From Nemertoderma westbladi (lineage: Eukaryota; Animalia; Xenacoelomorpha), in contig JAUCBJ010001698.1 in the NCBI GenBank assembly GCA_032718475.1, forward strand, positions 1 to 64,000: a stretch of DNA of 64,000 bases, given 5' to 3'. The notes beneath the pieces are model-generated. The model saw nothing but the letters and a program-made list of their open reading frames with translations, was not told the DNA's origin and made no database searches. Positions 27,214 to 52,122 of the stretch are shown here, piece by piece; the first letter of the stretch is position 1, and every line of letters begins with the position of its first letter. A program made the position numbers and the translations under genes.

Positions 27214-28572
27214 GTTTATTTGTACAGTTGAATGCCTACTGCTATATTACAGTTAATGCAAGTCTAATAATTCAGTATCAACTGTTAGCCTAGTAATTAA
27301 TTACCGATATCGTTACTCAGTGTAACGTGATATATATACAATATGTTACAATACCGGTATACACTTATAGTATATATATAAGTATTATTACAGACTAGGT
27401 TTGTCACAGAATACCGGTATATAATTTCAGCAAAAATATATAGATATATAATAAGCCTATCGTGAAACAGCTTATACTTATAATATATAAGTATAATTAT
27501 AGACTAGAATTAATTACAGAATACCGGTATATAATTTCAGCTTAGATTTATAGAATAAATATAATAAGCCTATTGTAAGTACCGGTATGTCAATTATTTT
27601 AGAAAAATTGAATTTCTGAATTTTTAAGGGTTACTTAGTTACTTTACTTGACTTTATTACCGTTATTTAAGCAGTAGTCCAACTGATATTAAGACCTAAT
27701 TGTTGTATGACAGGCCTACTATTTTATAAATCGGTTTGAGTTGATTTATAATATATATATACCCGTATAATGGGTTTTGTCAATGTTTGAAATAAATGTT
27801 ATTATTTCTGGGAAGGAGTCACTACACAGAAGCTATACGCTCTCAGTGAAGTGCTACTTGTTGGACACTAAAACAAATAATTCTAATTTGCCTAAGTTAC
27901 TTATTACTACAAATTACGTACAATTGCGGGGTGAGATTACAATCTCTAAGTAAACACAAAAATTACAAGTACGAATTTTTAGGGTAATTTTACAAGAAGT
28001 CTACAAACCAGCCTAACAAAGGGTTAGAATATCTGGTTATTACAACGGACAGGATACTACGGTATTTGAAAATAATACGCAGTAGTAAATATATTGCGTT
28101 GTCCAGATAGGAAAAATACCACCGTCTGACGACTTATAGCCATATCGCTATAAGTACTACGTTATGTTTCACGGAGTGTTCCTACCTAGAAGTTAATTAC
28201 CGCGGCCTACCAGAGCCAACATGCCTATTAACCACTTTACAACATAAATATACTGCCTACACACTAATTACCTTCGGAAAACACTGTACTCTAAACCCTA
28301 GATTAGGTACAAGTACTTGTATAACAAATAACCAGCAGTTAAATATACTTGTACAGCTAAAAGAACCACGGTATCTGCCGGAGTGACCAGAGCACAAAAT
28401 CTCCAGTCTTTACCTACGCCAAGCAGCCCTGATGTAGTACCGGGGTTAATTTAACTATAACGGTATGTATAACAAGCACAATTACTGTAGGAATAAACTT
28501 GGGGTTGTGAATGTTGCGAATAATCGCATAAACTCTGAATAATAAATATTGCGCTACGCGTACAGACTTCTC

Positions 28573-29398: not shown

Positions 29399-30604
29399 TG
29401 TTCGCGCTTTCAGACCTTTAGCAGTTTAACCTGCCAAATTTAGGTGTCTTCTAAGTTATAAATCGACTTTAGCCTATGACGAGTATTTGATACACTACAT
29501 TAGCCGAAGCCAGCCTATGCGCGACCATTCACCCGCTGGATATACCCGGGAGACTGGATACGGAAGCTCTGACCTTATTGCGGTGTAGGCCTACTGTATT
29601 ATTCGATTGATCGTTAATATATAATCTCTGACAAATATTATTCACTTTCGGGAAATACTAACAGTTCCTTTAGGACGTGGCGCTCTAAATATATAAACAG
29701 AGTTATGACTTATACTAAACACAACGGGATGGCTAATGATTCACGTATAAGGCGCATTCTTTAGGAGATGCTTTGTTATCTGTCACAGTCATGCACACTA
29801 CCGCACAATGCTGCACACCGATCTGCCGACCTTCACTAATTTTAGTCACATATAAAGAGAACAGCAATTGACACCTGTAGTGCCTATGAAATAGCATTAG
29901 ATTCACTCCAAAACCAATATCATATAAGTCGCAATTGCTATATGTAACCGGTCTCTTACCTTCAGTATATCAAGAAGATGGGGTTTTATGATTATTTATG
30001 GATATTATCCAAATATAACAATATTCCATCAACAGATACAATTAATAACCGACAGTAAATAGCAGTAAAATAATGCGGTGAAAGGTATGTATAGCATTTG
30101 AGTCTGACCAGTTTGGTTTGATATGTGCTGACTTGATATGGTTTGATAACAGTTATACGTTTCGGTAATCAAAGCCGTTCTAATGTTTGGCTAAAGTCTG
30201 AAACACAGAATAATTCCATAGCCGATGTTCTGGCATCAGGAAAAAAGGTAAACATAAACCATAATGCATTGCGCGATTTCCCGGAGGCCTCTGTGCAAAT
30301 AAAATGAAAATCGCTCTGATTGGTCGAGTGAGTGAACAGAGTGAGCCTGAACAAAGAAAGCTCCACGAGTACACTAAATCAGCTGATAGATGTCGTAATC
30401 TGAACTACACTGTATTAAGAGTATTTTGGCGCATTGCGACACAAAATGGCTTGTTATGTCCGCCAAAGTACACATACAGAAAAAACAGCTTTTTATGTCC
30501 GCTAAACACCGATACAGTAAGAAAACGGCTTTTTATGTCCGTTATAACATCTACAGAGTACTTTGCAGGGAAAATGACTAGCTAATTCCGCAAAAGCCTT
30601 TACA
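29399..30604 (-). repeat. Element 1 5' LTR
   Basis: Copy of 12226-13431, followed on the plus strand by TSD AGGCC. Confidence 0.97.
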
Positions 30605-32946: not shown

Positions 32947-34890
32947 TATAGAATTATATTCTCTAAATGCCGTGGATTTTCAAAATTTTATTTTATTCGA
33001 ATTAACTTTGTAAAAGATTGCTTTGAATCCTCATTTGTATTTGTTATATCTATTGTACGCCTATTGGTCAAGTGGTTCAGTAGCTCAGTCGGTAGAGCGT
33101 TGGAAATTATATGTGTAGTAGGTATTGAGTTCGAATCCTAGTAAGAGCGAATTATTTTTTGTGCAGAATTTCAACTCATTTAAATTAACCGCTACAAATT
33201 AATTGCATTTGTCTGTACCAATGAGACTGTAGTTATTTGATTGTAACCAATGTCGTGCAAGTTATATATTAGCTGGACCAATAGCTATCTTTAAAACCCT
33301 GTTAGAACCTATAGAACAATCGAGAATTTTCTCGATTGATTGCAGCACAAATTTGCTATATAAAGGTGCGATTTGTTCATTAGTTATTCAATCTTCAATC
33401 TTATACATCTCAGTATTTACATTCATTATCTCAGTGCATTCTATCTATATCTTTCTGATCTTATTAGTTATTATCTTATCTGTTTGATTTTGTAATAAAA
33501 GTTAGAAATACTTGTCAATCTCAGCCCTTTTCTATCTGTTTTACCATGATTCACTACGGTGAACAAACCTAAGGGACAGGATGGCCGGCCAGAGATCGGG
33601 CCGCAGCAATGAACGGGAACATCGGGGGAATGTAGACGAGAGACAACCCGCAATACCATCTTGAGTTATTCGCCCATCGCCTGAAAGGTTAGACAGCGTT
33701 CGACGCCTTGCTACCTAAGTATAAGACCAAAAGATCATAAGGTAGAAGTAGTGGCACGCTGTGAGCCTAAAATTACATCTTAGGGACTGTACTGTCTTGA
33801 TTCAGGAAAAAACCACAGTAGACCTTCATATTCCTACGGGGGGGGGGGAGAGCGCAGGCAGATACTAGTACGCAGATAGGACGTAGGCACACCGGTACGA
33901 AGCATACAAATTGGTAGGGTGCAGCAAACTGTACGCCTAACTCTTGCTAAGTACAGGTGTGTGTGCGACTATTTGTAGTACGACAGTGTCCATTGCATTA
34001 GAACTTGTAGGCTAGGGGGGTTGCTGTGTTTTCACCTGAATTGGGATTGTACCGTTCAGGCGGTAGGGCAGTTTACAGCTAGGCGCAAATAAATTGAGGC
34101 TATTAGGGATACTAACATCTACCGTGTCCCCGCCAACGCCCAAATAGGAAGTTACCCGGACTACCTGGGTGACTAAAATTCTAGATAGGAGCCAGGATAG
34201 CTATTAGTAACTGTACGCCTACAGTAGTAAACTAACACATCTCTTCTTAGTATCAGGGACCTGGTACCTAAAATTGCCGAATTCTGGGCGTAGCATTAAC
34301 CTTATGCCTGAATTTGAGTCCTGGAAATACGCAAGAGGGGAAGGAACCTTATCATTCGTGAGTATTGGACCTACAAGTTACAAAATTAGAATATTCGTAA
34401 AATGCACACCGTACCCAGTAATTATATATGTGAAGGAGCAAAACTGTCTTTGACCGTTCAGAATTAACACACGCGCGTTAGAAATTATTTACACCTCAAA
34501 ATATATAAAATTAACTTTCGTCCGTACTGTGCTTTGCCCGCTAGTTAGACATCTCCAAATCTCTGCCTGTGTACCTAGCTAGCGTCCTTTCGCCCAACCA
34601 TATAAATCACACCGCGGCAAAGTGTACGAGCCTCTTAGTCCGTCAGTGAGTCAGCCTGATTTTAGGATTCGCTGCGCGGGATTTTGTTTCACCGAAGTTT
34701 GTCTGCTCGTAGACTGTTTTCTGCCTCACCGGTTATAAGAGATCAATACTGCAATATATTCGCTTACTTAGTTTACTGTTTTGGTGAGAAGGTCGGATTT
34801 ATGATTTGATTCACAAACTTTACAGTAGGATATTGCAGGTATTGTTACTGTCTCTTCCATATAGTAGGAATAGGCGTATCTCTTCCAATA
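32947..34890 (+). repeat. Element 2 5' LTR (1944 bp, TA...TA ends)
   Basis: Identity with the 3' copy starts at TATAGAATT and ends at CTTCCAATA. TATATAAA at 33357; AATAAA at 33494 and 34088. Confidence 0.95.
33074..33160 (+). promoter_or_regulatory. tRNA-derived Pol III cassette in the LTR (second copy 49921-50007)
   Basis: A box/D-arm TAGCTCAGTCGGTAGAGC, B box GAGTTCGAATCC, T6 terminator. Acceptor and anticodon stems do not pair. Confidence 0.7.
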
Positions 34891-35740
34891 GTAGGAATAT
34901 GATTATTTTAACATATTTCCTAGAATAGTAGGAATATGTTTTACTGAACTACGGTTCGGTAGGACTAAAGTTATTTGAAAATTTTGTATTTTGAGGTAAA
35001 AATTTATATTTGATTAGCTAAGTGCTAATATTTTGAAAAAAAAAAATTTGATTTGAACCGCGTGTAAAATATTTTGGAATTGAATACCGGTGTTTAAAAA
35101 AGGGTTTAAATACCATATTGTACCGGTACAAAATTTTTCGTAAAAGTAAAACCTAACTCTTTTGTTTTTCAGGATTCAGAACTCATTTCTAGACTGTAAC
35201 GGGAGCAAGACCGTGTTTAGCAAGTTTGGGAGATAGATAACTCAACAACTTTGGTTGGGAAAATCGCGTTTCGTCCGCAACGTTAAAAACGGAAAGGTTC
35301 ACGTCCGGTTTGTATCTGGGAATCTGTTTTTCTGGAGAATTATTGGAGTGGGTGAGTTCAAAAAGTTGCATAAATAAGTTAGGCATTACCGTATTAGTTA
35401 AAATTATTGTGGGTTCCACTGTCTCAAGTATTTATGCATTCCGTATGATTTCTTTGTTCATTGCTGAATTAGTCCGTATTATTGTATTTAATTTACCTTT
35501 TGATAACGCATATCGTTATCCGATTTATTTGTTATAAAATTGGCCACTAGGCTAATTTTATTATATACTTATTCCGTGACATTTATTTGCTGTAAAATTG
35601 GCCGTTTAGGCTAATTTTATCCATCTGCTATAAAATCGGCCGGTAGGCTAATTTTATAAGACTGTAATTAGTACCGTTTAGATAAAATACGGTAAGTTTG
35701 ATACTTTGACACTCACTTTACTTGACTTACAACTACCGAA

Positions 35741-38700
35741 ATGAGTGACAAACAAAACTATACGAAAAATACACAAACCGACTATGACTCATGTGACGCG
35801 GATAAGTCAGCAGCGGAAGAACAACAGGGGAAGACTCGCGAGCCTACCGAACCTACACCGTGTGCGTCACCAGTACATCCAACGGGAGTACCGGATGCCG
35901 TAGTACGAGGCGACGGCAGGACCAAGGACTTTCTAACTGTTCCGCAACCTAGATACAGGGAAACGGACATGGTGAGTTCAGCAGGAAGTCAGGAAAGCGT
36001 TGTTAGGAGCGTCGGAGGATACATGGCGCATATTACCAGGAGTATTGGAGAAGGCCAATGCGTATTAGACGAGTTGACTGCGCCGATGTCTCGATTCGAG
36101 TTCTACACCCTCCAGGTGAGAGTACAGAGTAAAGTATATAAGTCCGTAGATAACCTAATTGGTCTACAAGATCTAGCTAGACAGAGACAGGACATGGATA
36201 CTCAACTTAGAATCCTCGAGAAACTAATGATCGCTAGAGAGAAACTGATTCAGTTTAAGTCGACGATTAGACACATACAACAGGAACAAGCGGACCAGTT
36301 GTTAGGTGAGTCAGTTTCGGACGAATTATTACAGCCCGAGGAAGAACAGGAACTGTACCGACTGGATGGACAATTGAAACATCTGACGGACCACTTACGT
36401 ATGTGCGGCGAAGACGTCGGCGATTCGGAAACCGTACCGGAATATACGAGGGAAACTTCACCCGTACGAATCGAATCGGCACCGGGAATACTGGACCAAT
36501 CGTTAGTGAGTATTCGCAGCGAAATTGGCGAGATAAGTATAGTGACGTCAGAAATTTCCAGACAGCAACAACAAGTGGATAGACAACAACGGGAAGCGGA
36601 GGAACAAGCTCAACTGTTGACGGCACAAGGAGCCGTACAAGAAGAAAAACTACGCGTTGCGGATGTTGCAAGAATCTCTCATCTGCAAGAACAAGCCGAG
36701 TTGGAAGCGGCTGAGATGGAAAGGTTGGAGCTAGAAATAGCACAGCGAACAGCGGCAGCTGAGTTAGCGCAACAAGCGGCAGCAGCTGAGTTAGCGCAAC
36801 AAGCGGCAGCAGCTGAGTTAGAACGACAAGCGGCAGCAGCTGAGTTGGAAGAACACAAGCGAGTTTCGGAAGCAAGAGCTGAAATGAAAAAACGGCAAAT
36901 AAAGGCTCAATCAGTGATAAGACAAGCGGAGCTCGAGGCGCAACAACGACAGACGGAACAACGCGAGAAGGAAGTTAAACTTCATTTCGAACTCGGGAAG
37001 AAGGCGAGAGAATTAGCCAACGCGAAGGAAGATCTGGATCTGCAAGCCCGCGATCGATCAATGAGATCTCGAGACGGACATGACTTGGACCAGATAGAGG
37101 TAAGACATCGCCAAATTCAGGAATGGAAGAAGGAAGGAAGCGTAGGAGCACCCGGACGGGAACGACAATTAGTAAAGGACTTGTGTCAACGATTCCCACA
37201 GGTAACTCATATGTTTGCACCGGTTACGACTAAGGAACCTGTTTCGATTGCGGGTAGTAGTAACATTTATCCTATCCATGGTGCGACGGAACACAGGTTT
37301 GTTATTCCGGACGAGTTTACACCGCCAAGAGCAACGTCGTCGCCTATTCCGAAAGTCAAGGTAAGTAACCCACCGATTACAGATCGTAGTAGTTTATTAG
37401 TCGAACCTGTATTACTGACGACTAAACAGGTGAGTCCACCTCTGACGCCAAAACCTGTTACACACTACGCTTACCCAATGACGTTTAGGCCAACAAGGCC
37501 TTTGGATTCAAACGCTGTTACTCGACCACCGGTTCAGTTTACATCGCAATCTACGACTTCGAGGAAGACTTGTGAGCCTACCGAACAACAGAGAACAGTG
37601 GATACGCGACCGTTCAACCAATTTACATCGCAATCTACGACTTCGAGGAAGACTTGTGAGCCTACCGAACAACGGAGAACAGTGGATACGCGACCGTTCA
37701 ACAAATTTACATCGCAATCTACGACTTCGAGGAAGACTTGTGAGCCTACCGAACAACGGAGATCAGTGGACGATGTTCCAAAGCGAAACGTTAGAATTCG
37801 TACGACGCAATGGACGCGAGCACGTCGACCACCATATCCAGATGATAGTAGTACTTCGAGCGAATCGGATTACCCGAAACGCGAGGTATTTAGAACAGGG
37901 GCGGCCGATGAATACAAACGCGAGCGTTCAGACAACTCCTTTGTAGACAATCCTCCACAGAATACACCAACACAGAAGGCGTTACAACCAACGAGGCAAA
38001 TCAGTACACAACAGTTCGCCGACATCCTGCGACCAGTTGTTAACAAGTTGGCTCAGATCGAGGAGCGTCTGGAGGAAGTTCAAACCGACAGTTCGAGGAA
38101 CACTGAGTTCGAACACAATAGACACCCGAAGGAACCACAAAGACCGGTACCTTCAAAACACACATCGTATCAGGGAAAAGCGCCAAGAAGGGAGAATATC
38201 AACCTGGTTACCAACCAAGGACGCGAAACTCTGAACGTTGCCGAGGAGATAGCGAAATTCGCAGCCAGACAAGGATTGCCGGTACAACAACCACCGAAGT
38301 TTTCCGGTAGCTCAAAACACTGGCACACTTTCGTAGACTATATCGAATCCCAGATCGCCATGTGCGCCTTTACATCACGGGAGAAGTTCAATTACCTGCT
38401 CCAAACGTTGTCAGGAGAACCTAAACGTTTGGCAGAGACTTTCGTCGGTGTACCGGACGCCTTCGAACTAGCGTACGATCGTTTAACTTCGATATATGGA
38501 GGTACAGTCAGTATGGCCAGGTCAGTAATAGAGGAACTCTGTAAGGGAGGGGCTATCACTAAACCCGTCGACTTATTAAAACTGGCCGACGAGATAAAGA
38601 ACGCTATCACTACTTTAAGATCCATTGGACAACTTGACTACGGGAATACCCCTACAGTCCTATTAAAGATCATAGGACGACTCCACCATCGACTTCGTCG

Positions 38701-41700
38701 GGAGTGGAGAAAGATCGAATACCAGCGAGAAGAGCGGGGTGGATTCTTAAAACTAGAGGATGTGTACCTTTTAATATCCAGGGAGGCAGTAGTAGAAACT
38801 CGATCTAACTACACTGACCAGCACATCGTGGCAGAAGGAATCACATTGCCATCCTCCAACCGACAAAAACCCCAGACAACATCCACTAAGACGGCCACTT
38901 ACACCACACCGACGGAATCACGACAATTCTCGGACGGTAGTAGGGTATCTGCGCCCATTGGGACAAAACAGACGAGACAACAACTCGGTACCGACTTCAG
39001 CGGCTGCCAATACTGCGAGCATCTAGGCAAGCGGTATATCGGTCACAAGTTGAGGGGTTGTCGACAGTTTCGCGAGTTGAACTCGGAAGAACGACGGCTG
39101 CAGATACGGCCACTGGACTCTTGTTGGCGGTGTACGCGACACGGACACGTCCGTAAAGATTGCCCAAATACCGACACTTGTCCATCCTGTGGACGCAACC
39201 ACGACGGTCTGCTCCACACAGACAGCCACACACCGACAAAACGCTTCGCCAGGGAACACCCGGAAGCAGCAGCGAGATGTGATGCGGCCTACAGAAAACG
39301 AGAATCGAAAACGACTCCAACCTTCGTGACCCATATTGAGGATTGCTTCTCAGAACAACCCGGATCGTCGGACGAAGAGTCAGAAGACGACGACGTATAT
39401 TCGGATGGAGATGAACAGCCATCGATCGCGCTTCTGACTACTGACCAACTAAAGGGATTTAGTGTAATTCCGATTAAGATTACCGGCACAAAGGGGAGTA
39501 AAAGAATCTACGCGATTCTAGATTCAGCCTCATGTCACAGCTACGTGGATGAAAAGATAGCTGACGTCGTGACGGATCTCAGACAAGGTAAGCGCGTCAG
39601 TTATACCGTAAGTAGTATGCACGGACTACGTGCAATACCAGTGACACGAGTCAAGTTAAACTTAGACTCTCTTCTTCCGAAATCGCAACACAGCGAGAGG
39701 GAGAGGTCTTTGTTACCCTTCAAGGATTTGACCTTTGCGGCCACAAAAGACTTTAGTAACCTACTAGGTCCGGTCCCAGAACAATCCTTGGAGGACCGTA
39801 AGTATTTCAGACACCTTGGTGTACCAGAATGTCCTGTCAATTATAGATCGGTAGCCATGCTGATCGGGACAGACCAATTCAACCTACATCAAGTGTGGGA
39901 AACCAGACCATCGGCAGTCGTAGCGGGAAACGCATACGCCTGCAGAACGCCGATAGGGTGGTATACTCGAGCGCCTGTGCGCACACTGGACATAAGTGAA
40001 GAGGAAGACGATGTACGAAGTACATGTAGTTTATTAACTACAAATTCAATTCATTCCTTCTCACACGACGTGAACCATACTACACTACAGTCGACAAAAC
40101 GTGACAGACGTGTAACTAGTATGATAAGTCACAAGGAGCAGCTAATCCACCAGCGGAGTTTAGAACTTGGGGAGAAGACGAGTCAGCTAGAGATTCCATC
40201 GACGACAGATGATAACGCCGGAAGGCTTGCGAGTCTACCTACCCCAACGACATCAACAATGCCCGTCGAGATCGATGATGACGCGTTGAGAAATCATCAA
40301 ATGGAACAAGCTGCACTGGACAAAGAATTAACGGAGAAGACTATCAGGTGGTTAGAACAAGATACAGCTGAACCTGGTAGCTACGAACCTTGTATGTCGG
40401 AACAGGAGAAACAATCTCTGAAGATCATGGAAGATACTATCCGACAGACGGAGGACGGACATTATGAGGTAGGGATGTTATGGCGTAGCCAAAGTCCTAA
40501 ACTCACAAATAACTATCCACTGGCTTTAAGACGTCTACACTCAATACGGCAACGTCTATTAAAGGACGAGAAAGCCCATCTGCAGTATAACACTCAGATG
40601 GAGACGTATTTGACTAAAGGATACGCTATCCGAATGACTAACCCAGAGATAGTGACTGACCAAACATATTACTTGCCACATCACTATGTGAGACACCCCG
40701 ACAAACCAGATAAAGTACGCGTAGTCAATGACTGTGCGGCTCTGTTTGAGGGAATGTCCCTCAATAGTGAGTTGATGGATGGACCAAACATGAATAATTA
40801 TCTTATGGGGGTGATTATGCGCTTCCGTCAGCGTCAAGTAGCTTTTACTTGTGACGTTGAAGCGATGTTTCACCAAGTGAGAGCGTTAGAGCGAGACAGA
40901 GACAGTTTGCGGTTCCTCTGGTACCTGGAAGGAGACTTAAGTCTACCACCGGCGACTTACCAAATGCAAGTTCGCGTTTTCGGTGCCAGAGACAGCCCAA
41001 ATTGCACGATGTACGCCCTAAAACAAGCCGCTAGAGATCAGAAACATCTATATGACCCAGAGATAATTAAAATCGTAGAACGTGACTTTTACGTAGACGA
41101 CGGATTACAGAGTTGCGACACAGTAGAACGTGCTACAACAGTAGCACATCAATTACGGGACTGCTTAGCGGGCGGAGGTTTTAACCTCACCAAATTCGCC
41201 TCAAACAGTGCCGAATTAGTAGACTCATTCGGAACGACTGAGCGTGGAGGTGGTGACATAGACCTAGAGTTCGAACCACTACCGACGACCAAGGTGTTGG
41301 GGCTCTTTTGGGACCCAAACACGGACAACTTCCGAGTGAAAGTAAGACTGGACAGTCAAGAAAACACACTGACAAAGAGATCATGCTTGTCAAAATTGAG
41401 CCGATTGTTCGATCCGTTAGGATTCATCAGTCCAGTAATACTGCAAGCCCGCATTTATATGCGCAGTATTTGGAAGGATGGACTAACATGGGACGAGCCG
41501 ATCTCATCAGACCAAGTGGACTTATGGAAGACCTGGGAGGCGGAATTATCTTCGCTAGAGGATTATTCCATACCCAGAGTTTACTTTCCATTACAAAGTA
41601 CATTTCCTGACAACTTGGAACTACACTGTTTTTCTGACGCCAGTGACAACGGTTTTGGTGTGGCAGCGTACTTGCGCAGACAAGTAGACTCAGAAGCATT

Positions 41701-44494
41701 CGATGTTTCGCTCATTACTTCTAAGGCAAAAACAATGCCTACTAAGTATATGACGACACCACGAGCTGAGCTACAAGCCGCAACCCTGTCAACCACCATC
41801 GTGAACCTCATACAGACAGAACTACAGTCAAGTTTACAGATATTTTATTGGACTGACGCGACGTTGGTTTTATTTTACATAAACAACGACACGCTTGAAT
41901 TCAAGACATTCGTAGCTAACCGTCGCGCAGAAATTCTAGATCGTTCAATAAAAGAGGATTGGCGACATTGTCCCGGACCACAAAACCCAGCTGATATTGC
42001 GTCGCGAGGAATGATGCCTGAGGAATTCTGTAAACCGGAAAACAAAGAATTTTGGCAACACGGACCCCAATTCTTGCAGAAATCGACGCAAGATTGGCCA
42101 CCGTTATGCGACAACAAGTCTAACACCATCCCTAAGGACGCCGAAATCAAGAAACCAAAAAAGGGGAAGGCAAAGAAAAAGACGACGGCGGCAAAACTCA
42201 AGAAAAAACCGAAGGCGAAATGGAAAGATATAACTTCAAAGGTCAAGAGAGGAAGACTTGCGAGCCTTTCTACACCAGACATATCGCCAGACGGTCAACC
42301 AGACACGTTACTAGACGGTCAACCAGACGTTTTGTCAGACATATCACAAAATGTTCTACCAGACACTAGTAACATATTGACAAACAGTAAAGCCGCAGCT
42401 TCCCTATTGGAGCGGCCTTCTGTTGACAAACAACCAGATACGTTACCAGACGTATCGCCAGACACATTACTAGACAGTCGACTAGACATTTTGTCAGAAA
42501 CATCACAAAATGTTCTACCGGACATTAGTAATGTATCGACTAACAGTAAAGCCGCAGTTTCCCTATTGGAGCGGCCTTGTATTGACAAACTACCAATTTT
42601 GACACACTTGAGCAACCATAAGCATGGTGAAACCTCATGTATTACAGATGTGGGTAGTACCTACGCTAATGTAAATACAGGTGTTACTCTGCGCTCAAGA
42701 GACATACCAAACTTGCAACCTATGGTGAGACCTGGGATTAATATCGGCAGAAAAATAAGCTTACCGAAACCCACTGACCCCATAGAGTTCAAACCACCAT
42801 TAACGATCGACTTACAAAGTACTGACAATCAAGGTAAGAAGACGAAGAAGGACAAATTACTTGTAGACCCGGATGGATCAACAGTCAACAAGGGAATACT
42901 TACCGGCGGACCCGTGGGCCCTTCTAGTAATTCAAAACCTTCCAAATTCTCCATTGACTTACCTGATGACGTCACAAATACTTACGTCGACCGTATTGTA
43001 AACCTAACAGATTCTTGGACGAACGCTTGCCGAAAATTAGCGTGGATTGTACGTTTTGTACAATACGTTAAAGGCAAACGCGACTTTACACATCGACTTA
43101 CATTGGCTGAGATTGACAGGTGTGAGATTAAATTAATTCGCCATTACCAACTGCGATATTTCGCGCGCGAATTCACATCTATAAATCAAGGTCAACCAAT
43201 CAAGTCGTCACCAATACTGAGTTGGAGTCCGATTATTTATAATGGCTTAATTTGTCATAAATCTCGGCTTCAAAACATTGACTTTAACACAAACTTTAGG
43301 TACCCAATAATAATACCGCAACATCACGAACTACAACGTGCAATGATACTGGACGCACATTTACATCTGAAACACGCTGGAAGACACCACTGTCTTTCCT
43401 ACTTACGTACAAGATTTGTATTAATTAGACCCAGTAAAGCGTTAAGTTCAGTGACACGTACGTGTATTATTTGTAAAAAGGTACATTCTAGAATAGGTAC
43501 CCAAGAAATGAGTGAACTTCCACAAGCACGACTTCAAGCATTCAGACCACCTTTTACAGAGACTGGAATTGATTGCTTTGGTCCCATACATACGAAACGT
43601 GGACGTATACTAGTAAAACGCTGGGGACTGATTTTCACATGTATGTCCAGTAGGGCAGTTCACATTGAACGTGTGATGGATCTTTCCACCAACGCGTTTA
43701 TACTAGCACTGCGGCGATTTATCGCTAGACGCGGACTAGTGAAATGCTTGTACTCAGACCAAGGGACAAACTTTGTTGGTGCTCGAAATGAGATTGCTAG
43801 AGCCTTTAAGAAATTAGATCATGATCAAATCTCGAACGAACTGCAACCTCACAAGATTGTTTGGAAGTTCAATCCTCCAGATAGTCCTTGGAGAGGCGGA
43901 GTCTGGGAGAGATTGATTAGATCTATAAAGACGGCAATGGCAAAGGTCATTCCAGTAAACCACATATTGACAGATGACCAACTGACGACACTGTTTGTTG
44001 AAATCGAGGCAATACTAAATACTAGACCAATAGTATTAGTACCCGATGACAAACAATCTCAGTTCGCTTTGACACCGGCACACCTGCTTATGCAGGCACC
44101 GACCATATTGACACCTATTTCTATTCCAATAGAAAGCGACAGCTACAGTAGAAAAGCGTGGAAAATCACGCAACTACTAGCTAACAAATTCTGGGAAATA
44201 TGGCAAAACCATTATTTGCCCTCTATTTCTGCCAGAACAACATGGTACAATAACACCCGCGCATTAAAGCCGGGAGATCACGTGCTGTTAGCGGAAGTGA
44301 ATCTAAAAAGACGCTTCTGGATAACAGGTGTAATTTTAGCCACACATCCATCTATGGATGGAGTGACAAGAACTGTGACGGTACGGACAATTGACGGTCG
44401 TACAGTAGACAGACCGACTCAACGTCTCGTACTTCTTGAAGAGACTCGTAACGAGTCTGGAGACTACAAATCTCCACCTAATACTAGTAAATAA
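35741..44494 (+). CDS. BEL/Pao Gag-Pol polyprotein, 2917 aa
   Basis: Single ORF: coiled coil, Gag (PPKFSG), CCHC knuckles, protease AILDSAS, RT FYVDDGL, RNase H CFSDAS/PRAEL/YWTDA/NPADIASRG, integrase HHCC, GIDCFGP, SDQGTNF, WERLI. Confidence 0.98.
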   Translation: MSDKQNYTKNTQTDYDSCDADKSAAEEQQGKTREPTEPTPCASPVHPTGVPDAVVRGDGRTKDFLTVPQPRYRETDMVSSAGSQESVVRSVGGYMAHITRSIGEGQCVLDELTAPMSRFEFYTLQVRVQSKVYKSVDNLIGLQDLARQRQDMDTQLRILEKLMIAREKLIQFKSTIRHIQQEQADQLLGESVSDELLQPEEEQELYRLDGQLKHLTDHLRMCGEDVGDSETVPEYTRETSPVRIESAPGILDQSLVSIRSEIGEISIVTSEISRQQQQVDRQQREAEEQAQLLTAQGAVQEEKLRVADVARISHLQEQAELEAAEMERLELEIAQRTAAAELAQQAAAAELAQQAAAAELERQAAAAELEEHKRVSEARAEMKKRQIKAQSVIRQAELEAQQRQTEQREKEVKLHFELGKKARELANAKEDLDLQARDRSMRSRDGHDLDQIEVRHRQIQEWKKEGSVGAPGRERQLVKDLCQRFPQVTHMFAPVTTKEPVSIAGSSNIYPIHGATEHRFVIPDEFTPPRATSSPIPKVKVSNPPITDRSSLLVEPVLLTTKQVSPPLTPKPVTHYAYPMTFRPTRPLDSNAVTRPPVQFTSQSTTSRKTCEPTEQQRTVDTRPFNQFTSQSTTSRKTCEPTEQRRTVDTRPFNKFTSQSTTSRKTCEPTEQRRSVDDVPKRNVRIRTTQWTRARRPPYPDDSSTSSESDYPKREVFRTGAADEYKRERSDNSFVDNPPQNTPTQKALQPTRQISTQQFADILRPVVNKLAQIEERLEEVQTDSSRNTEFEHNRHPKEPQRPVPSKHTSYQGKAPRRENINLVTNQGRETLNVAEEIAKFAARQGLPVQQPPKFSGSSKHWHTFVDYIESQIAMCAFTSREKFNYLLQTLSGEPKRLAETFVGVPDAFELAYDRLTSIYGGTVSMARSVIEELCKGGAITKPVDLLKLADEIKNAITTLRSIGQLDYGNTPTVLLKIIGRLHHRLRREWRKIEYQREERGGFLKLEDVYLLISREAVVETRSNYTDQHIVAEGITLPSSNRQKPQTTSTKTATYTTPTESRQFSDGSRVSAPIGTKQTRQQLGTDFSGCQYCEHLGKRYIGHKLRGCRQFRELNSEERRLQIRPLDSCWRCTRHGHVRKDCPNTDTCPSCGRNHDGLLHTDSHTPTKRFAREHPEAAARCDAAYRKRESKTTPTFVTHIEDCFSEQPGSSDEESEDDDVYSDGDEQPSIALLTTDQLKGFSVIPIKITGTKGSKRIYAILDSASCHSYVDEKIADVVTDLRQGKRVSYTVSSMHGLRAIPVTRVKLNLDSLLPKSQHSERERSLLPFKDLTFAATKDFSNLLGPVPEQSLEDRKYFRHLGVPECPVNYRSVAMLIGTDQFNLHQVWETRPSAVVAGNAYACRTPIGWYTRAPVRTLDISEEEDDVRSTCSLLTTNSIHSFSHDVNHTTLQSTKRDRRVTSMISHKEQLIHQRSLELGEKTSQLEIPSTTDDNAGRLASLPTPTTSTMPVEIDDDALRNHQMEQAALDKELTEKTIRWLEQDTAEPGSYEPCMSEQEKQSLKIMEDTIRQTEDGHYEVGMLWRSQSPKLTNNYPLALRRLHSIRQRLLKDEKAHLQYNTQMETYLTKGYAIRMTNPEIVTDQTYYLPHHYVRHPDKPDKVRVVNDCAALFEGMSLNSELMDGPNMNNYLMGVIMRFRQRQVAFTCDVEAMFHQVRALERDRDSLRFLWYLEGDLSLPPATYQMQVRVFGARDSPNCTMYALKQAARDQKHLYDPEIIKIVERDFYVDDGLQSCDTVERATTVAHQLRDCLAGGGFNLTKFASNSAELVDSFGTTERGGGDIDLEFEPLPTTKVLGLFWDPNTDNFRVKVRLDSQENTLTKRSCLSKLSRLFDPLGFISPVILQARIYMRSIWKDGLTWDEPISSDQVDLWKTWEAELSSLEDYSIPRVYFPLQSTFPDNLELHCFSDASDNGFGVAAYLRRQVDSEAFDVSLITSKAKTMPTKYMTTPRAELQAATLSTTIVNLIQTELQSSLQIFYWTDATLVLFYINNDTLEFKTFVANRRAEILDRSIKEDWRHCPGPQNPADIASRGMMPEEFCKPENKEFWQHGPQFLQKSTQDWPPLCDNKSNTIPKDAEIKKPKKGKAKKKTTAAKLKKKPKAKWKDITSKVKRGRLASLSTPDISPDGQPDTLLDGQPDVLSDISQNVLPDTSNILTNSKAAASLLERPSVDKQPDTLPDVSPDTLLDSRLDILSETSQNVLPDISNVSTNSKAAVSLLERPCIDKLPILTHLSNHKHGETSCITDVGSTYANVNTGVTLRSRDIPNLQPMVRPGINIGRKISLPKPTDPIEFKPPLTIDLQSTDNQGKKTKKDKLLVDPDGSTVNKGILTGGPVGPSSNSKPSKFSIDLPDDVTNTYVDRIVNLTDSWTNACRKLAWIVRFVQYVKGKRDFTHRLTLAEIDRCEIKLIRHYQLRYFAREFTSINQGQPIKSSPILSWSPIIYNGLICHKSRLQNIDFNTNFRYPIIIPQHHELQRAMILDAHLHLKHAGRHHCLSYLRTRFVLIRPSKALSSVTRTCIICKKVHSRIGTQEMSELPQARLQAFRPPFTETGIDCFGPIHTKRGRILVKRWGLIFTCMSSRAVHIERVMDLSTNAFILALRRFIARRGLVKCLYSDQGTNFVGARNEIARAFKKLDHDQISNELQPHKIVWKFNPPDSPWRGGVWERLIRSIKTAMAKVIPVNHILTDDQLTTLFVEIEAILNTRPIVLVPDDKQSQFALTPAHLLMQAPTILTPISIPIESDSYSRKAWKITQLLANKFWEIWQNHYLPSISARTTWYNNTRALKPGDHVLLAEVNLKRRFWITGVILATHPSMDGVTRTVTVRTIDGRTVDRPTQRLVLLEETRNESGDYKSPPNTSK
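37533..37772 (+). repeat. 84-bp (28-aa) tandem repeat, ~3 copies, inside gag
   Basis: QFTSQSTTSRKTCEPTEQQRTVDTRPFN repeated. Confidence 0.95.
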
Positions 44495-45156
44495 TTAGGA
44501 GTTTACAAATAGATTTCCACGTACCTGTACACCGTAGTAAGGACAGCGGTAGAATTCCATTGTCTTTATATGTGAACATTGAGGGTAGTACCCTTATGTG
44601 TCATATAGGAGCGGGATTTGTAGGTATAAGAAATGGAATTCTACTTGGAACTCACAATATTGAGACATTTTCGAAAATTTAGACAATCCATTTGGATTTG
44701 AAAAATTTTTAAAAATTTTCTCCAGTGAATAGATTTCAGGGTACAGTCGGGTGGAACTTAAAATTAGAGAAACAAGAGAGGAAGACTTGCGAGCCTTTCT
44801 TAAAATTTTTAATTAAATTTTACACGGTCTTGTTTCAATAAGTTACGTCAAAATAGACTCCCCTATATTTATTTACTAATTCTTGACTGCTTATTTTCTG
44901 ATAATAGTTTGGGATCAAAAAGTGAGTATTTTAGACTCACAGCCAGTTTAGCCCAAATTCGTTTTTATTTCGGCAAAAAATTTTAGATAAGAAGCAGCGT
45001 GTCATTAAAGAAACCCTAGATCTTAGGCTATGGGTAGGAGGTTAGAGCGTTGTCGAGCCCAAAGGGCAGACGAAACTCTCACGTCTCCTCACAACTAACT
45101 ACAAACTCTGTTGTATTCCCTCTAGTAGTAATGATTATGTAACTACACCCCTAATT

Positions 45157-48100
45157 ATGGAGAAAGGGATACAAGGAGAGCCGAGATGGGGATATGATAT
45201 CCAAGAGGAGGCAGCAGCGCCATTCGAAAGATTTGGAGCCAAGGACTACACTATATTTGGTATAAAAGAATTATCGGAAAGTACAGCGAAACTCGCGAGA
45301 ACTAAATATGACTCGAATGTATTAAAGAGAAGACAAAACGCATTAAACGAAAGAATCGAAAGTTTGCGTCAAACCTTCAATGAACTTTACCCGTACGACG
45401 CTTTGTGTGATACGGGAGACATTAGCGAAGACCCCGATACTGAAATTAGTCGTTTGTATCATACCATGCAATACCTAAAGGCACACGAACCTATGCCCGC
45501 GGTAAGAGATGAATTCGATGGAATGCATCTTTACAGACGAACTCGAGGGGACGATAGAGAAACCAAGGAAGCATTTTCAGTTTATAAACTTTATTATCAA
45601 TGCGGTTCTTGAATGCGCGAACAACGAAATGCGATTCCGATGCGTTTGAATAAGGAAAATCCCGAACCGATATTGGCGAGGTGTTCGAATCATCAACAAC
45701 TACGCTACCAGGAAGGAGGGTATCCTTTATCGAATCCATATCATTCATTTGCTATGACCGGACCAAAGGCGGGAGAAACTGTCATTTACCCACCTAAGGT
45801 TGTTGAACCCGATGTATTTGAACTTACGCTGGACGAGGCGAATCAGTCAACCCGCGAAAAGAAAGAAGCTCTTAGCCTATACAGAGCCTACAAGGCTTTC
45901 GAGAAAGGTGAGATGGAAGAATGGGGTGGAAGACTCGCGAGCCTACCTTGCCATTGGACGTCACACGATCAAACTTCAGCTAAGGAGATGACACCGGAAG
46001 TTTTCGAGAGCATAAACTTTGCTCAAAACGTTATTCAGAGACTACAGATTGCATCCCCGGAGAGGACAAGAGAAATGCAACCGTATAGTACTTCAACTAC
46101 GAAACCATTGAGTACGACACTCAACTTTCCTATTAGTATACCAGTCCGACAGGATACGACGTACGAAATACCCATCGTGGATCATCCAGAAATCATTTCA
46201 AACTTGGAGTTTCTTCCTGCAGTTGTTTTCAGCGATATGAGTAAGATATATGATTTACGTAGACATATTACTCAAAAGGTCGTGTACAACGTTCCACCTC
46301 ATATTCAAGATTTCAAGGAACTGGATAGAGCTGGTGCCGATATAGCTCCGAGTAATCTGAAAGGATATCTAACCGAGACGATTCGTTTATGGATTGGAAC
46401 CGGAACCTTCGAGTCGGATACAGATATTGCCGCAGATTGGCGAGGTAAGGTTATTCGTTTCGAAGATGATAAGGATATAGAGAAGATTTGGCAACCTTCG
46501 GAAGAATTGTTGGATGAATGGAATAGGACGTTCAGATCGTTTCAGGAAAATGGTAACATGTTTTACGATAACGAGGGCGGCAGTCATCAGCAGAGTTTGA
46601 CTTCTAAGACTATACAGATTAGAGCGGCGGACGGAGTCCTGCACGTTTTCAGTAGACAGAGGAGCGACAAACGAATGCCGATACCTCCAGCGAATACAAA
46701 GCGACACCATCTTATCACCGATATAGTAAAGAAGATGGACCAAGCTTGTAATATTGACGCTAGAATGCTACCGAAGATGGTAAGAAACATGATTTTAGAT
46801 AAAACTGTTGTAAAGATTGGATCAGGAGTAAGGGAGGATTTAATTAGCGACTTCGCCGGCATGACGGACAGCGATGACCGACTACCGACACCTTACGTCG
46901 ACACTCGACCTCTTATCTTGTGGTCTATAGAACAGGGATATTTTCGTGAGTACAATACTCAGAAGACTGGAACTGGGTACATTTCCTACCTGTTATTCAA
47001 TTGGGATTATAAGGAAAATAAGAGAAACAAGTATATTGAAACTTATGGAGAAGGTGATACTCCAGATATGAGTGAGTTTGAATCACAGCTTAAATGGAGA
47101 GGATGCGTGTATTGGGCCATTACGTCACCTCCAAGAGCGGTCTTACAATATTATTTAGCAATAGAGTCGTCAGTGAATGTTTGCTTAATCGCCGACATTG
47201 TGTCTCGGACTCTCAAAAGACATCCACTTTGTCTCGGAGAAGATCATACGTTCTACATGGAAGGGAGAATTCGTACCGACGTGTTTAGACGATTCCTTGA
47301 ACCCTTCTACAACTCCGACGCTCAGTGTAATGCCTTTACTCGAGCAGGATTTAGTATATTTCGAGACGTGTATCTTCGCTGTGCGGGATCTCTTATCGAA
47401 AGACCATCTATGTTTACATTGTTACCCTATGAAGGAGAACGTATCGTGGAGATTACGGAAGAATCACGGCAGACGCGCGCGCCTATCGGTCACCTTGGTG
47501 ATGATTTCGAAGTAACTACTACGATCGCTGACGATCCTTTAGAGGAACTTCTTGAGATAGAAAGGAACCTCCCGAAGAAATCTCAGACGGAGATTCGACA
47601 ACTTGAAGCAACAGATGCTATAGTTTGTATACAACCTTCAGAAACCTACCAACCCATAGACCCAGATGATTACGATTATAGTATGGGAGGAAGCGCTCGA
47701 CCGATTGGAGATCTTATATACGAACGAGTGTGGTACCCTGCCAATACGATGTGTAGTAAATGTGGCGTCGCTGGACATCATATGACAAAGTGCAGTGGAA
47801 AGCACATTACTACGACTCAGCTAATCTGTGGATGGTGTGGGGATCAAGGGTCTCATACATTTTATACTTGCTGGAGATTTATGGCTCAATGTACTTACTG
47901 CAATATAAAGGGACATCGAGCATCTGAATGCCAATTAAGAGACATACCTTATGAACACGAATCTGTAAAACTCGTGAGGAAATTATTCGATGAGTGGGAA
48001 GATTTAGCCGACGAACATGTATCGGCACAAAGAAGACGGTTTCCGATGAGAGCGCATCTCGGATTTTGGGCGGTAAATCCCCAGACGATGATGTCGGAAG

Positions 48101-48882
48101 GATACATCTCCGCTATGCCCCAATATGACGAACTTATCGAGGTTGTCGATATTTTGCCCCACGACAGCGGATTCCGAGTGGTGCGCAAGTATCTACTACA
48201 GATTCACCCGGATAACAAAAACACGTGGAATTTTCAGAAAGTCGTTAATCGCATTACGTATGGTGAATTCGATCGTTTCCGAACCGAAAGGCGGAACAAA
48301 GGAGCTTGGTTAACCGTCGCATGGGCGTACCGAGCCGCGTTTTACCATAAACGTATACGAGCGAGCGTATTCGAGGAAGAGGAGGTCCTAGAGGCGACAA
48401 ATATACCAGCCACTCCGGTTGCGCTGTCTGCACGTCACCCTCGGGAGGACGGGCAGGGTAGGATCATACGGGTCCAAAAGGTGGGCCAACAATTAAAGAA
48501 AATTATTAATGTAGAAGAACGCAAGGGAGTTGAGCCGACTATTCGAGTTACTCGGGATACGGTATCACTTCCAAGAGAACCAGTAGGAGGATCGGGACAT
48601 ACACCAGCTGATCAACAGGGGGCGCAAGCTACTCTTGGGTCTGCGTCGTCCGCTTCTCGCGTGTTCCCAGACGTTCTACCAACTGTAGTGACGACTGATC
48701 GGTCACGAGGAATCGGTCGAGGTTTTGGGATGCCAAATAGACGAATTTGCGAGGAAATAGTCGCACCGTCTCTCAACGTCCCAAGTAAACCAGTGACTCG
48801 CCCCACGAGTCCCATATCGCGAGCAAAGTCACCTGTGCGCAGTTTTCGAGGACGCGGCAGGGCTCGATCCACTAAGCGATAA
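45157..48882 (+). CDS. Element 2 extra ORF (ORF3), ~1241 codons with one in-frame TGA (45610-45612): DEDDy 3'-5' exonuclease, 3 CCHC knuckles and a basic tail
   Basis: ExoI FYDNEG (46561), TIQIRA, ExoII LPKMVRNMILDKTVVKIGSGVREDL, YVDTR, ExoIII-like YYLAIES. Knuckles CSKCGVAGHHMTKC, CGWCGDQGSHTFYTC, CTYCNIKGHRASEC (47752-47931). Confidence 0.85.
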
Positions 48883-49793: not shown

Positions 49794-51734
49794 TATAGAA
49801 TTATATTCTCTAAATGCCGTGGATTTTCAAAATTTTATTTTATTCGAATTAACTTTGTAAAAGATTGCTTTGAATCCTCATTTGTATTTGTTATATCTAT
49901 TGTACGCCTATCGGTCAAGTGGTTCAGTAGCTCAGTCGGTAGAGCGTTGGAAATTATATGTGTAGTAGGTATTGAGTTCGAATCCTAGTAAGTGCGAATT
50001 ATTTTTTGTGCAGAATTTCAACTCATTTAAATTAACCGCTACAAATTAATTGCATTTGTCTGTACCAATGAGACTGTAGTTATTTGATTGTAACCAATGT
50101 CGTGCAAGTTATATATTAGCTGGACCAATAGCTATCTTTAAAACCCTGTTAGAACCTATAGAACAATCGAGAATTTTCTCGATTGATTGCAGCACAAATT
50201 TGCTATATAAAGGTGCGATTTGTTCATTAGTTATTCAATCTTCAATCTTATACATCTCAGTATTTACATTCATTATCTCAGTGCATTCTATCTATATCTT
50301 TCTGATCTTATTAGTTATTATCTTATCTGTTTGATTTTGTAATAAAAGTTAGAAATACTTGTCAATCTCAGCCCTTTTCTATCTGTTTTACCATGATTCA
50401 CTACGGTGAACAAACCTAAGGGACAGGATGGCCGGCTAGAGATCGGGCCGCAGCAATGAACGGGAACATCGGGGGAATGTAGACGAGAGACAACCCGCAA
50501 TACCATCTTGAGTTATTCGCCCATCGCCTGAAAGGTTAGACAGCGTTCGACGCCTTGCTACCTAAGTATAAGACCAAAAGATCATAAGGTAGAAGTAGTG
50601 GCACGCTGTGAGCCTAAAATTACATCTTAGGGACTGTACTGTCTTGATTCAGGAAAAAACCACAGTAGACCTTCATATTCCTACGGGGGGGGAGAGCGCA
50701 GGCAGATACTAGTACGCAGATAGGACGTAGGCACACCGGTACGAAGCATACAAATTGGTAGGGTGCAGCAAACTGTACGCCTAACTCTTGCTAAGTACAG
50801 GTGTGTGTGCGACTATTTGTAGTACGACAGTGTCCATTGCATTAGAACTTGTAGGCTAGGGGGGTTGCTGTGTTTTCACCTGAATTGGGATTGTACCGTT
50901 CAGGCGGTAGGGCAGTTTACAGCTAGGCGCAAATAAATTGAGGCTATTAGGGATACTAACATCTACCGTGTCCCCGCCAACGCCCAAATAGGAAGTTACC
51001 CGGACTACCTGGGTGACTAAAATTCTAGATAGGAGCCAGGATAGCTATTAGTAACTGTACGCCTACAGTAGTAAACTAACACATCTCTTCTTAGTATCAG
51101 GGACCTGGTACCTAAAATTGCCGAATTCTGGGCGTAGCATTAACCTTATGCCTGAATTTGAGTCCTGGAAATACGCAAGAGGGGAAGGAACCTTATCATT
51201 CGTGAGTATTGGACCTACAAGTTACAAAATTAGAATATTCGTAAAATGCACACCGTACCCAGTAATTATATATGTGAAGGAGCAAAACTGTCTTTGACCG
51301 TTCAGAATTAACACACGCGCGTTAGAAATTATTTACACCTCAAAATATATAAAATTAACTTTCGTCCGTACTGTGCTTTGCCCGCTAGTTAGACATCTCC
51401 AAATCTCTGCCTGTGTACCTAGCTAGCGTCCTTTCGCCCAACCATATAAATCACACCGCGGCAAAGTGTACGAGCCTCTTAGTCCGTCAGTGAGTCAGCC
51501 TGATTTTAGGATTCGCTGCGCGGGATTTTGTTTCACCGAAGTTTGTCTGCTCGTAGACTGTTTTCTGCCTCACCGGTTATAAGAGATCAATACTGCAATA
51601 TATTCGCTTACTTAGTTTACTGTTTTGGTGAGAAGGTCGGATTTATGATTTGATTCACAAACTTTACAGTAGGATATTGCAGGTATTGTTACCGTCTCTT
51701 CCATATAGTAGGAATAGGCGTATCTCTTCCAATA
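49794..51734 (+). repeat. Element 2 3' LTR (1941 bp)
   Basis: Preceded by purine tract ATGGAGCGG and followed by TSD ATGTT. Confidence 0.95.
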
Positions 51735-52122
51735 ATGTTTGATTATCAAATTTGTGCTACTTGTAGTTTTCGTGCCGCGCATTGGCATTTATACAAAAAT
51801 GCCCCAATCAACAAGGTACGATTTATTTCAGTGTCATATTCGTGATCAGCATCTAAGTAATATATGGTCATGAAATCAATTTGATTTTGTGGAGATTTTT
51901 CGCTATCATATTTGCACTACTTGTTTTTTTCGTGCCCCCCAGAGGGCACATTCAAAATTACCAAAAATTTTCTCGTATTTGAGTTCTATAATCGTGATCA
52001 GTGTGCCAGATCTTCTTTCTCATTTTTTTGTAGCTAGTTTTAGTCGCTTCCATTTACTTTCTAGAATATCAGATATTATATATTATATTATACATTGAAC
52101 AAATGACAATATATCCAGACCT

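Follow-up and report, generated by a model that had tools for sequence, protein, structure and literature searches.

The window, that is, the whole stretch of 64,000 nucleotides analysed here (contig JAUCBJ010001698.1 of Nemertoderma westbladi, positions 1 to 64,000), contains two young BEL/Pao LTR elements, E1 (18.4 kb) and E2 (18.8 kb), whose features are listed in Table 1. Both have LTRs and 5-bp target duplications. The LTR pairs are 99.3% (E1) and 99.6% (E2) identical, and the two pol regions share 43% identity. The gag-pol of E2 is intact (2922 codons) and contains DUF1759, three knuckles, protease, RT, Peptidase_A17, integrase and DUF5641. The order PR-RT-RH-IN fits BEL/Pao, and Pfam matched Peptidase_A17 (E=4e-42), DUF5641 (4e-20) and DUF1759 (7e-11). 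The original prediction had placed an exonuclease gene in the env slot of a BEL/Pao element, and both the family and the position were upheld by sequence profiles. On a tree of integrases from unnamed loci only, E1 and E2 cluster with support 100/98, a pairing flagged as long branches meeting. LTRs, a 5-bp duplication and a single gag-pol with PR-RT-RH-IN are likewise described for Belpaoviridae (PMC8742986 and the available text of PMC3118150), as are the family-typical Pfam domains and, in the text available, a third gene past the integrase. Unlike the family norm of 4.2-10 kb, which is a typical range and not a criterion of descent, E1 and E2 reach 18-19 kb, and the LTR of E2 is 1.9 kb (PMC8742986). 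They are unusually large members of BEL/Pao and only distantly related to each other.

Table 1. Features of the two BEL/Pao elements in the window
Feature	Position	Strand	Remarks
E1 3' LTR	12226..13431	-	
E1 ORF3 homologue	13510..17611	-	at least 3 frameshifts and 3 in-frame stops
E1 gag-pol	19244..27246	-	six fragments of at least 150 codons
E1 5' LTR	29399..30604	-	1206 nt, TG...CA; target duplication GGCCT; 9 mismatches to 3' LTR
E2 target duplication	32942-32946 and 51735-51739		5 bp, ATGTT
E2 5' LTR	32947..34890	+	1944 nt, ends TA...TA; 4 mismatches and 3 gap columns to 3' LTR
E2 candidate self-primer in LTR	33826..33837	+	exact reverse complement of 34891-34902
E2 primer-binding position	34891..34902	+	tRNA-type TGG site absent; complementary to 33826-33837
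E2 splice donor in leader	35352..35357	+	GTGAGT, intron start; context GG/GTGAGT
E2 gag-pol	35741..44494	+	single open frame
E2 branch point, pyrimidine tract and acceptor AG	45095..45125	+	CTAAC...ctctAG; exon 2 from 45126
E2 uORF	45131-45142	+	3 codons, between exon 2 start and ORF3
E2 ORF3	45157..48882	+	1241 codons, one in-frame stop; follows integrase, env slot
In-frame TGA, codon 153	45610-45612	+	ATG immediately after; aligned E1 position open
DEDDy-type 3'-5' exonuclease domain (predicted)	46498..47200	+	D471, E473 (ExoI), D561 (ExoII), Y666, E670 (ExoIII)
Three CCHC knuckles	47752-47793, 47827-47871, 47890-47931	+	
Post-knuckle region	47932..48306	+	conserved in E1, P0002, P0003; no family match
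Pro/Ser/Thr-rich, basic tail	48307..48879	+	
E2 3' LTR	49794..51734	+	purine tract GGAGCGG just before
Third LTR	62862-63920		a 3' LTR

The third gene of E2, ORF3, begins its frame 662 nt downstream of gag-pol. It had been described as an open frame of about 1240 codons after the integrase; the frame from 45157 and its place were correct, but it is not open, as the TGA at codon 153, which was missed, divides it into 152 and 1089 codons. No transmembrane segment is evident, as had been stated (maximum 19-residue hydropathy 1.38), and hydropathy together with Pfam, PDB and profile searches gave no signal peptide, membrane anchor or fusogen homology. A 440-residue N-terminal region matching no known type precedes the exonuclease domain; its first 151 residues showed no Pfam or Atlas match and no internal repeat. 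The three knuckles (47752-47931) and the Arg-rich tail (Arg at 7 of the 20 final positions) were found as described.

The quoted motifs all lie in the frame from 45157: FYDNEG at 46561-46578, YVDTR at 46894-46908 and YYLAIES at 47149-47169, with KIGSGVREDL at 46813-46842. D-x-E, KxGxxxxxD and Y-x-x-x-acid are conserved in all four aligned sequences (E1, E2 and the unnamed proteins P0002 and P0003) at 20-35% identity. The last ExoIII residue is E in E1 as well as in E2, as had been noted for the latter, while P0002 and P0003 have the canonical D. In hhalign, the ORF3 alignment matched 14 bacterial RNase D/PolA-type domains with 88.3% (E=2.9e-6, score 45.8), compared with a maximum of 16.6 in 60 column shuffles and 16.8 for the reversed control; with the rows of the window alone, the probability was only 21%. 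E. coli RNase D aligned with ExoII and ExoIII in register (E=0.0039), and further profile matches were EXD2 (E=0.0045), DnaQ (E=0.033), Egalitarian (E=0.065) and the PolA proofreading domain (0.3). ESM Atlas gave 0.93 to a PF01612 cluster. Single sequences stayed under the cut-off of Pfam, which returned no exonuclease match for ORF3; no single target exceeded 1.1 bits with the 14-sequence bacterial HMM, and single-sequence PDB searches gave nothing relevant. Rows of HIV RT p51 at E of about 0.2 were treated as chance.

The structural checks proposed with the original prediction failed, as did its Pfam check. Two AlphaFold models had pLDDT of 30 and 35, with no confident structure, and Foldseek found no match at E<=0.001. 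Among the 46 Foldseek rows listed, 11 are RNase AS or EXD2, all at E of at least 0.5; three of these are titled 'uncharacterized' and we take them to be of that identity. A VIA-align fold search returned helical bundles only. Several weak lines converge: sequence profiles support an RNase D/EXD-type DEDDy exonuclease, though no confident fold was obtained. In EXD2, Egalitarian and RNase D, which belong to the Pfam DNA_pol_A_exo1 group, ExoI, ExoII and ExoIII are in register with ORF3; ORF3 differs from them by its score below the Pfam threshold, the E at ExoIII, an insertion between ExoI and ExoII, the knuckles and the 440-residue N-terminal region.

The knuckles have yeast Air2 as the closest solved structure (E=6.6e-5, a Cys-biased score). 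Air1/Air2 of TRAMP also have three knuckles with the spacing of ORF3 and five residues in the middle one (C-x2-C-x5-H-x4-C in ORF3), but the match is limited to the Cys-rich array with a composition-biased score and is a resemblance only. An origin as a copy of E2's own Gag knuckles was not detectable (E 0.56).

E1 carries a homologue of ORF3 in the same slot after the integrase (27% identity over 747 columns, E=2e-60), and its gag-pol is as disrupted as its ORF3. A full homologue scan gave three matches, P0001, P0002 and P0003, while word-indexed searches were empty. P0002 and P0003 have the same exonuclease-knuckle architecture; P0001, a plant protein matching the knuckles only, was dropped. 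The copy in a second element and this shared architecture suggest that the predicted exonuclease-knuckle gene is unlikely to have arisen by chance. Homologue searches, including the full scan, found no host gene of such architecture, and scans of metagenome and viral contigs and phages found no ORF3 locus. The ORF3 profile matched none of 31 BEL integrase loci, of which only 8 have at least 2.4 kb downstream and 5 at least 4 kb. The long downstream frame of locus L002 was considered as an env and rejected, as it is another gag.

ORF3 is intronless and is preceded by a splice acceptor of its own. A splice joint at 35350-45125 (GT..AG, cut +1) links the leader donor to the acceptor 31 nt upstream of ORF3, with canonical signals on both sides; it was read in one contig of one run (X4), with 29 letters on the short side. 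It suggests that ORF3 of E2 is reached by a splice from the leader, resembling an env message. In E1, an AG lies 2 nt upstream of the ATG, and a pattern search found no donor and no strong branch/acceptor consensus.

In BEL/Pao elements the primer site is typically 18 nt long and pairs with the 3' terminus of tRNA-Arg or tRNA-Gly (PMC8742986). Unlike these, E1 and E2 have no evident site of this type: TGG, the site for the tRNA CCA end, is absent in the 100 nt past both 5' LTRs, and no tRNA or Rfam match was found within the window. The first 12 bases past the 5' LTR of E2 instead pair with a stretch inside the LTR. This duplex is anchored exactly at +1 and is matched by 0 of 5000 resampled LTRs; its energy is -18.1 kcal/mol, the next best being -10.8. 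The candidate self-primer starts with TCATATT, which we take to be initiator-like. The match in E1 is weak, at 8 nt only, and is equalled in 200 of 5000 resampled LTRs. A primer site at the 5' LTR complementary to an LTR-internal stretch is also described for Tf1 and Tj1 in the available text of PMC4600332 and PMC6317226, where such self-priming is reported in Ty3/gypsy and some Ty1/copia, with no BEL/Pao element and no exonuclease gene named. The Tf1-like pairing is strong in E2 and weak in E1, and the identity of the self-primer as the transcript 5' end is putative.

We propose that the accessory ORF3 of these two diverged elements encodes a predicted DEDDy exonuclease with RNA-binding knuckles that may trim the 3' ends of the element's own RNA, a reading to which we give a probability of about 0.4. 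That ORF3 is a spliced DEDDy-fold cargo kept by the lineage is very probable; that its product acts on the element's own RNA ends is putative and tentative. The knuckles would bind RNA of the element and draw the protein into the particle; the nuclease may trim single-stranded 3' tails back to the duplex. RNase D/T-type enzymes chew single-stranded 3' tails to a duplex in this way. The RNA started in the LTR could anneal by its 5' end to the first 12 bases past the 5' LTR, and trimming would then make or clean a 3'-OH primer for reverse transcription. The missing tRNA-type site and the 12-bp self-primer of E2 give indirect support to the idea of primer or RNA-end processing that had been put forward. 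On the other side, Tf1 produces its self-primer through the RNase H activity of its RT, so that in principle an exonuclease could be dispensed with. It seems unlikely that, in a further step, a giant BEL/Pao lineage dropped tRNA priming and self-primes from its 5' end, with the spliced exonuclease-knuckle gene making the primer as an Rrp6/Air2-like unit in one protein.

The main rival to trimming of the element's own RNA ends is a role in counter-defence, which we regard as somewhat doubtful: acting in trans, the protein would trim or degrade silencing RNAs of the host or dsRNA of the element and so let the element evade piRNA/siRNA control. A separate spliced unit suits a trans-acting factor, and the best solved relatives, EXD2 and Egalitarian, are kin of the small-RNA trimmers Mut-7/Nibbler and EXD1. 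However, mature piRNAs carry a 2'-O-methyl group on their 3' end and would resist such a nuclease, and the absence of a tRNA-type primer site is left unexplained. DEDDy cargo recurs in the unrelated Juno/Vesta, Terminons and, in the available text, Dada DNA transposons, and the Lassa NP exonuclease, which digests dsRNA and suppresses immunity according to the accessible part of its source, counts in favour of this role too; in bdelloids, on the other hand, DEDDy ORF3 had no clear correlation to copy number or small-RNA escape (PMC5408684). The D-to-E change at ExoIII in E1 and E2, the Egalitarian match (E=0.065) and the Air2-like knuckles could also indicate an adaptor: a weak or inactive nuclease fold that, as in Egalitarian or EXD1, binds RNA and would serve to transport or assemble the RNA of the element. 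We consider this quite unlikely, as the five catalytic positions all remain acidic or Tyr and the canonical D is kept in P0002 and P0003. In the Klenow fragment, moreover, D-to-E at the ExoIII site keeps much activity.

A role in proofreading or in polishing cDNA ends, serving an 18 kb genome of unusual length, would agree with the size of E1 and E2, about twice the 4.2-10 kb of the family (PMC8742986), with the association of nidovirus ExoN with genome growth in the available part of its source, and with the proposal that Dada exonucleases process 3' DNA ends (available text of PMC3706591). Yet ORF3 is not fused to the RT, its RNase D/EXD match is better than that to the PolA proofreading domain (E=0.0039 vs 0.3), and the knuckles suggest RNA as the target. 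We judge it very unlikely, and it is the weakest of the three functions first suggested, since the gene is spliced separately and lies outside Pol. Finally, the gene may be a captured host gene of no benefit that is now decaying, as neither copy in the window is intact and there are deletion variants without the domain. This is extremely improbable: the gag-pol of E1 is equally broken, the motifs are kept at 27% identity between the elements, the gene is intronless with its own acceptor, and homologue searches found no host gene of such architecture.

The original prediction was correct that DEDDy ORFs occur in bdelloid rotifer retroelements: Juno and Vesta carry a DEDDy-exonuclease ORF3, shared with Athena/Terminon (PMC5408684). 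Like E1 and E2, these are young elements in which an RNase D-like gene follows pol in the env slot, lacking transmembrane or coiled-coil env features, and the function is putative in all. They belong to a different family; the elements treated in PMC5408684 are Juno, Vesta, TelKA and Mag, and no BEL/Pao element is named there. Compared by description, their motif is DEED and that of E1/E2 is D-E-D-E, and the main text describes no knuckle fusion such as that in E2. In Dada, DEDDy sits inside the DDE transposase, unlike the separate gene of E1/E2 (available text of PMC3706591). As the original prediction had supposed, no BEL/Pao case of a DEDDy ORF3 or exonuclease-knuckle fusion was found in the literature searched, in which similar cargo was known earlier solely from other kinds of mobile elements.

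Since the bdelloid report of 2017, in which no function was demonstrated, it has been asked why retroelements capture 3'-5' exonucleases. A case from another LTR family, in which the gene has knuckles and splice signals of its own, indicates that the capture was repeated or is shared across families. That the predicted exonuclease gene of E2 goes together with a primer site not of the tRNA type makes a specific, testable hypothesis. If self-priming with a primer made by the ORF3 product is true, it would give retroelement DEDDy cargo its first concrete job, and BEL/Pao a way of self-priming unreported for the family in the literature searched. The predicted exonuclease-knuckle product stands where the available text on Belpaoviridae has an env-like gene, and BEL/Pao third genes should not be called env from position alone.

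Both copies of ORF3 in the window are broken, once in E2 and repeatedly in E1, which counts against trimming of the element's own RNA ends as the best explanation. So do internal deletions (45296-47329, 45316-47441) in contigs of runs X1, X3 and X4, which lose the exonuclease region. In favour of that explanation, among 12 listed of 89 indels none lies in gag-pol or ORF3. Among 40 listed of 909 differences, 7 are in ORF3; 5 of these are silent and 2 replace a residue, which is too few for use.

We found that E1 and E2, the two BEL/Pao LTR elements of the window, carry a homologous gene, ORF3, in the same env slot after the integrase (27% identity over 747 columns, E=2e-60). The motifs quoted in the original prediction were all found in the E2 frame beginning at 45157, and its claim that the product has no TM segment agreed with a hydropathy that is nowhere above 1.38. 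The single ORF of ~1240 codons that it described is, in contrast, interrupted by a TGA at codon 153 with an ATG immediately after it, giving 152 and 1089 codons. Since a second E1/E2 match (30% identity over residues 59-189) spans the stop position, this stop probably represents damage to the E2 copy, judging from the homology; translation restart at the adjoining ATG is possible. ORF3 of E1 is disrupted by at least three frameshifts and at least three stops, and its gag-pol is likewise broken, being split into six pieces.

The 2922-codon gag-pol of E2 is a single open frame, and its predicted BEL/Pao identity held, as Pfam found the usual domains of the family in it (Peptidase_A17, DUF1759, DUF5641). 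Aligned with each other, the LTRs differ by 4 mismatches and 3 gap columns in E2 and by 9 mismatches in E1, and the RT and integrase regions of the two elements are 42-43% identical. At 18.4 kb (E1) and 18.8 kb (E2), the elements are about twice as long as the family range of 4.2-10 kb given by ICTV (PMC8742986). The E2 LTRs have TA...TA termini (32947, 51734), not TG...CA, and the target duplication fixes the limits. The E2 gag contains 84-nt and 27-nt repeats. The presence of BEL/Pao sequence and a flanking gene with an apparent intron suggest an animal host.

Coordinates of the two elements and of other features of the window
Feature	Positions	Strand	Description
E2, complete LTR element	32947-51734	+	LTRs 1944 and 1941 nt; target duplication ATGTT
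E1, complete LTR element	30604-12226	-	LTRs 1206 nt; target duplication GGCCT
ORF3 of E2	45157-48882	+	
ORF3 of E1	13510-17611	-	
E2 LTR end	34853-34940		motif around TAGTAGGAATA in three copies
E2 leader	35140-35175		second branch-point/acceptor-like signal (CTAAC, pyrimidines, CAG); no joint there among those listed
E2 pol, RNase H-integrase interval	42200-43100		long low-complexity insert with 159-nt tandem repeat
E2 3' untranslated region	48900-49790		AT-rich imperfect repeats, length differs among copies
E1 leader	29399-27246	-	untranslated, 2.1 kb; 291-nt tandem duplication; 9-bp hairpin directly after LTR
3' LTR of a third element	62862-63996	-	element related to E1, ~71% identical; same purine tract
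Host 5-formyltetrahydrofolate cyclo-ligase gene	59649-60460	-	Pfam E=6e-37; apparent upstream exon
Tandem array	52046-52727		43-nt unit
Array	56632-57391		161-nt unit, inverted arrangement
Nested long inverted repeats	401-1479		

The claim that ORF3 encodes a DEDDy 3'-5' exonuclease was supported by the profile comparisons, but Pfam detected only the CCHC zinc knuckles in ORF3, below the cut-off, and two structure models (pLDDT 30.4 and 34.5) were too low to show the fold. A full scan of 1.84 billion representatives gave three matches to ORF3; two unnamed ENA proteins, P0002 and P0003, matched at E=1.4e-5 and 4.9e-4. As in ORF3, the exonuclease motifs are followed in both by an acidic linker, a Cys/His cluster and the conserved region after the knuckles, and their ExoIII acid is the canonical D. 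These two proteins have canonical DEDDy residues and no Pfam exonuclease match. When a profile built from E1, E2 and these proteins was compared with solved structures, the six best matches included Air2 (E=6.6e-5), EXD2 (0.0045) and Egalitarian (0.065), the other three being knuckle proteins. A comparison with E. coli RNase D brought ExoII, ExoIII and the DT motif of this profile into register (E=0.0039). The hhalign comparison with 14 bacterial RNase D/PolA-type domains reached 88.3% with a score of 45.8 covering ExoI and ExoII, against a maximum of 16.6 in 60 column shuffles and 16.8 for the reversed profile; with the window's rows only, the probability falls to 21%. The E2 domain alone matched DnaQ at E=0.033, and in the ESM Atlas it scored 0.93 to a PF01612 cluster (166 shared features) in which half of the members have the family and which three unnamed clusters equal in rank. 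No individual search was strong; judged from sequence, ORF3 is very probably a DEDDy exonuclease.

It is reported that a tRNA primer site of the CCA-end type is typical of BEL/Pao (PMC8742986). TGG is absent from the 100 nt after the 5' LTR of E1 and E2 alike, and therefore both lack such a site. Positions 33826-33837 in the E2 LTR are the exact reverse complement of the first 12 internal bases, with the match beginning at +1. This length was attained by 4 of 14,872 other internal starts in E2 and by none of 5000 resampled LTRs, and the 12-bp duplex has -18.1 kcal/mol (next best -10.8). The pairing has the layout of Tf1/Tj1 self-priming as presented in the accessible text of PMC4600332 and PMC6317226; no self-priming BEL element is named in the accessible portions of the literature searched, these two included. 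The anchored match in E1 is weak, at 8 nt, and was equalled by 200 of 5000 resampled LTRs. Because the sole control locus in which both LTRs are complete also has no TGG within 25 nt past the LTR, BEL elements may have non-tRNA sites more often than the ICTV profile says, and these sites are not necessarily tied to ORF3.

Contigs from four public runs were compared with E2. Among the 15 joints listed of 89, a single contig of run X4, a run whose type is guessed ('DNA?'), joined 35350 to 45125 with GT..AG ends and a short side of 29 letters. The donor reads GG/GTGAGT, and the acceptor (CTAAC, pyrimidine tract, AG) lies 31 nt upstream of the ORF3 ATG and is the only match to an acceptor with branch point in the pol-ORF3 interval. 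Whether this contig represents cDNA or a spliced copy that had been reverse-transcribed, an RNA was spliced at the joint. Messages for env arise by such leader-to-gene splicing. The empty insertion site of E2 was seen in X1 and X3, so some chromosomes are without the insertion. Contigs of both runs also have a shorter version of the TAGTAGGAATA repeat, and GTAGGAATATG still adjoins the LTR.

The gene, its slot, its motifs and its splice signals are observed, as is the primer-site pairing. We suggest, with a probability of about 0.4, that ORF3 acts as an accessory RNA exonuclease: the knuckles would hold the predicted enzyme on element RNA, the protein would be packaged, and it would trim RNA of its own element at the 3' ends, in the most specific version the self-primer. 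A counter-silencing role for the putative nuclease is the foremost alternative, though somewhat less likely, and proofreading is quite unlikely. ExoIII reads Y-x-x-x-E in both E1 and E2, so the predicted exonuclease may or may not be active; that ORF3 serves as a non-catalytic adaptor appears improbable. None of the 12 indels listed of 89 falls in the coding frames of E2, and an X4 contig of 1887 nt over the exonuclease region had 41 differences and zero gaps. These data weakly suggest that the reading frame is kept among copies; the contigs also include deletion variants without the exonuclease region. We consider it very improbable that ORF3 is a passenger.

According to the accessible text, bdelloid Juno and Vesta elements and Terminons carry DEDDy ORF3s with DEED motifs and a function not demonstrated (PMC5408684), which the available parts of reviews also cite (PMC6431247, PMC6338049, PMC5718144), and Dada DNA transposons have a DEDDy exonuclease inside the transposase (PMC3706591, in part). 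A BEL/Pao exonuclease was not found in the open literature searched; subscription journals, Repbase, figures and supplements may contain one. The third genes mentioned in the ICTV profile (PMC8742986) and in the accessible portions of the 2011 BEL/Pao survey (PMC3118150) and a 2026 env survey are all env-like, and 'exonuclease' has 0 occurrences in those portions of the two surveys. The ORF3 feature is real, of a known cargo type in an element family new for it; the knuckle fusion, expression by splicing and perhaps a connection with self-priming come in addition.

In a tree built from the integrases of the two elements and of 19 of 31 metagenome BEL loci (12 were dropped for <250 aligned columns), E1 and E2 cluster at 100/98, with a long-branch warning attached. 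The ORF3 profile matched 0 of the 31 loci, five of which have at least 4 kb downstream. The most parsimonious, though unproven, interpretation would be a single ORF3 capture in a common ancestor of E1 and E2.

The nested long inverted repeats elsewhere in the window are possible foldback or MITE-like elements. The LTR of the third element starts with TA, compared to TG in E1, and this element extends past the right end of the window.
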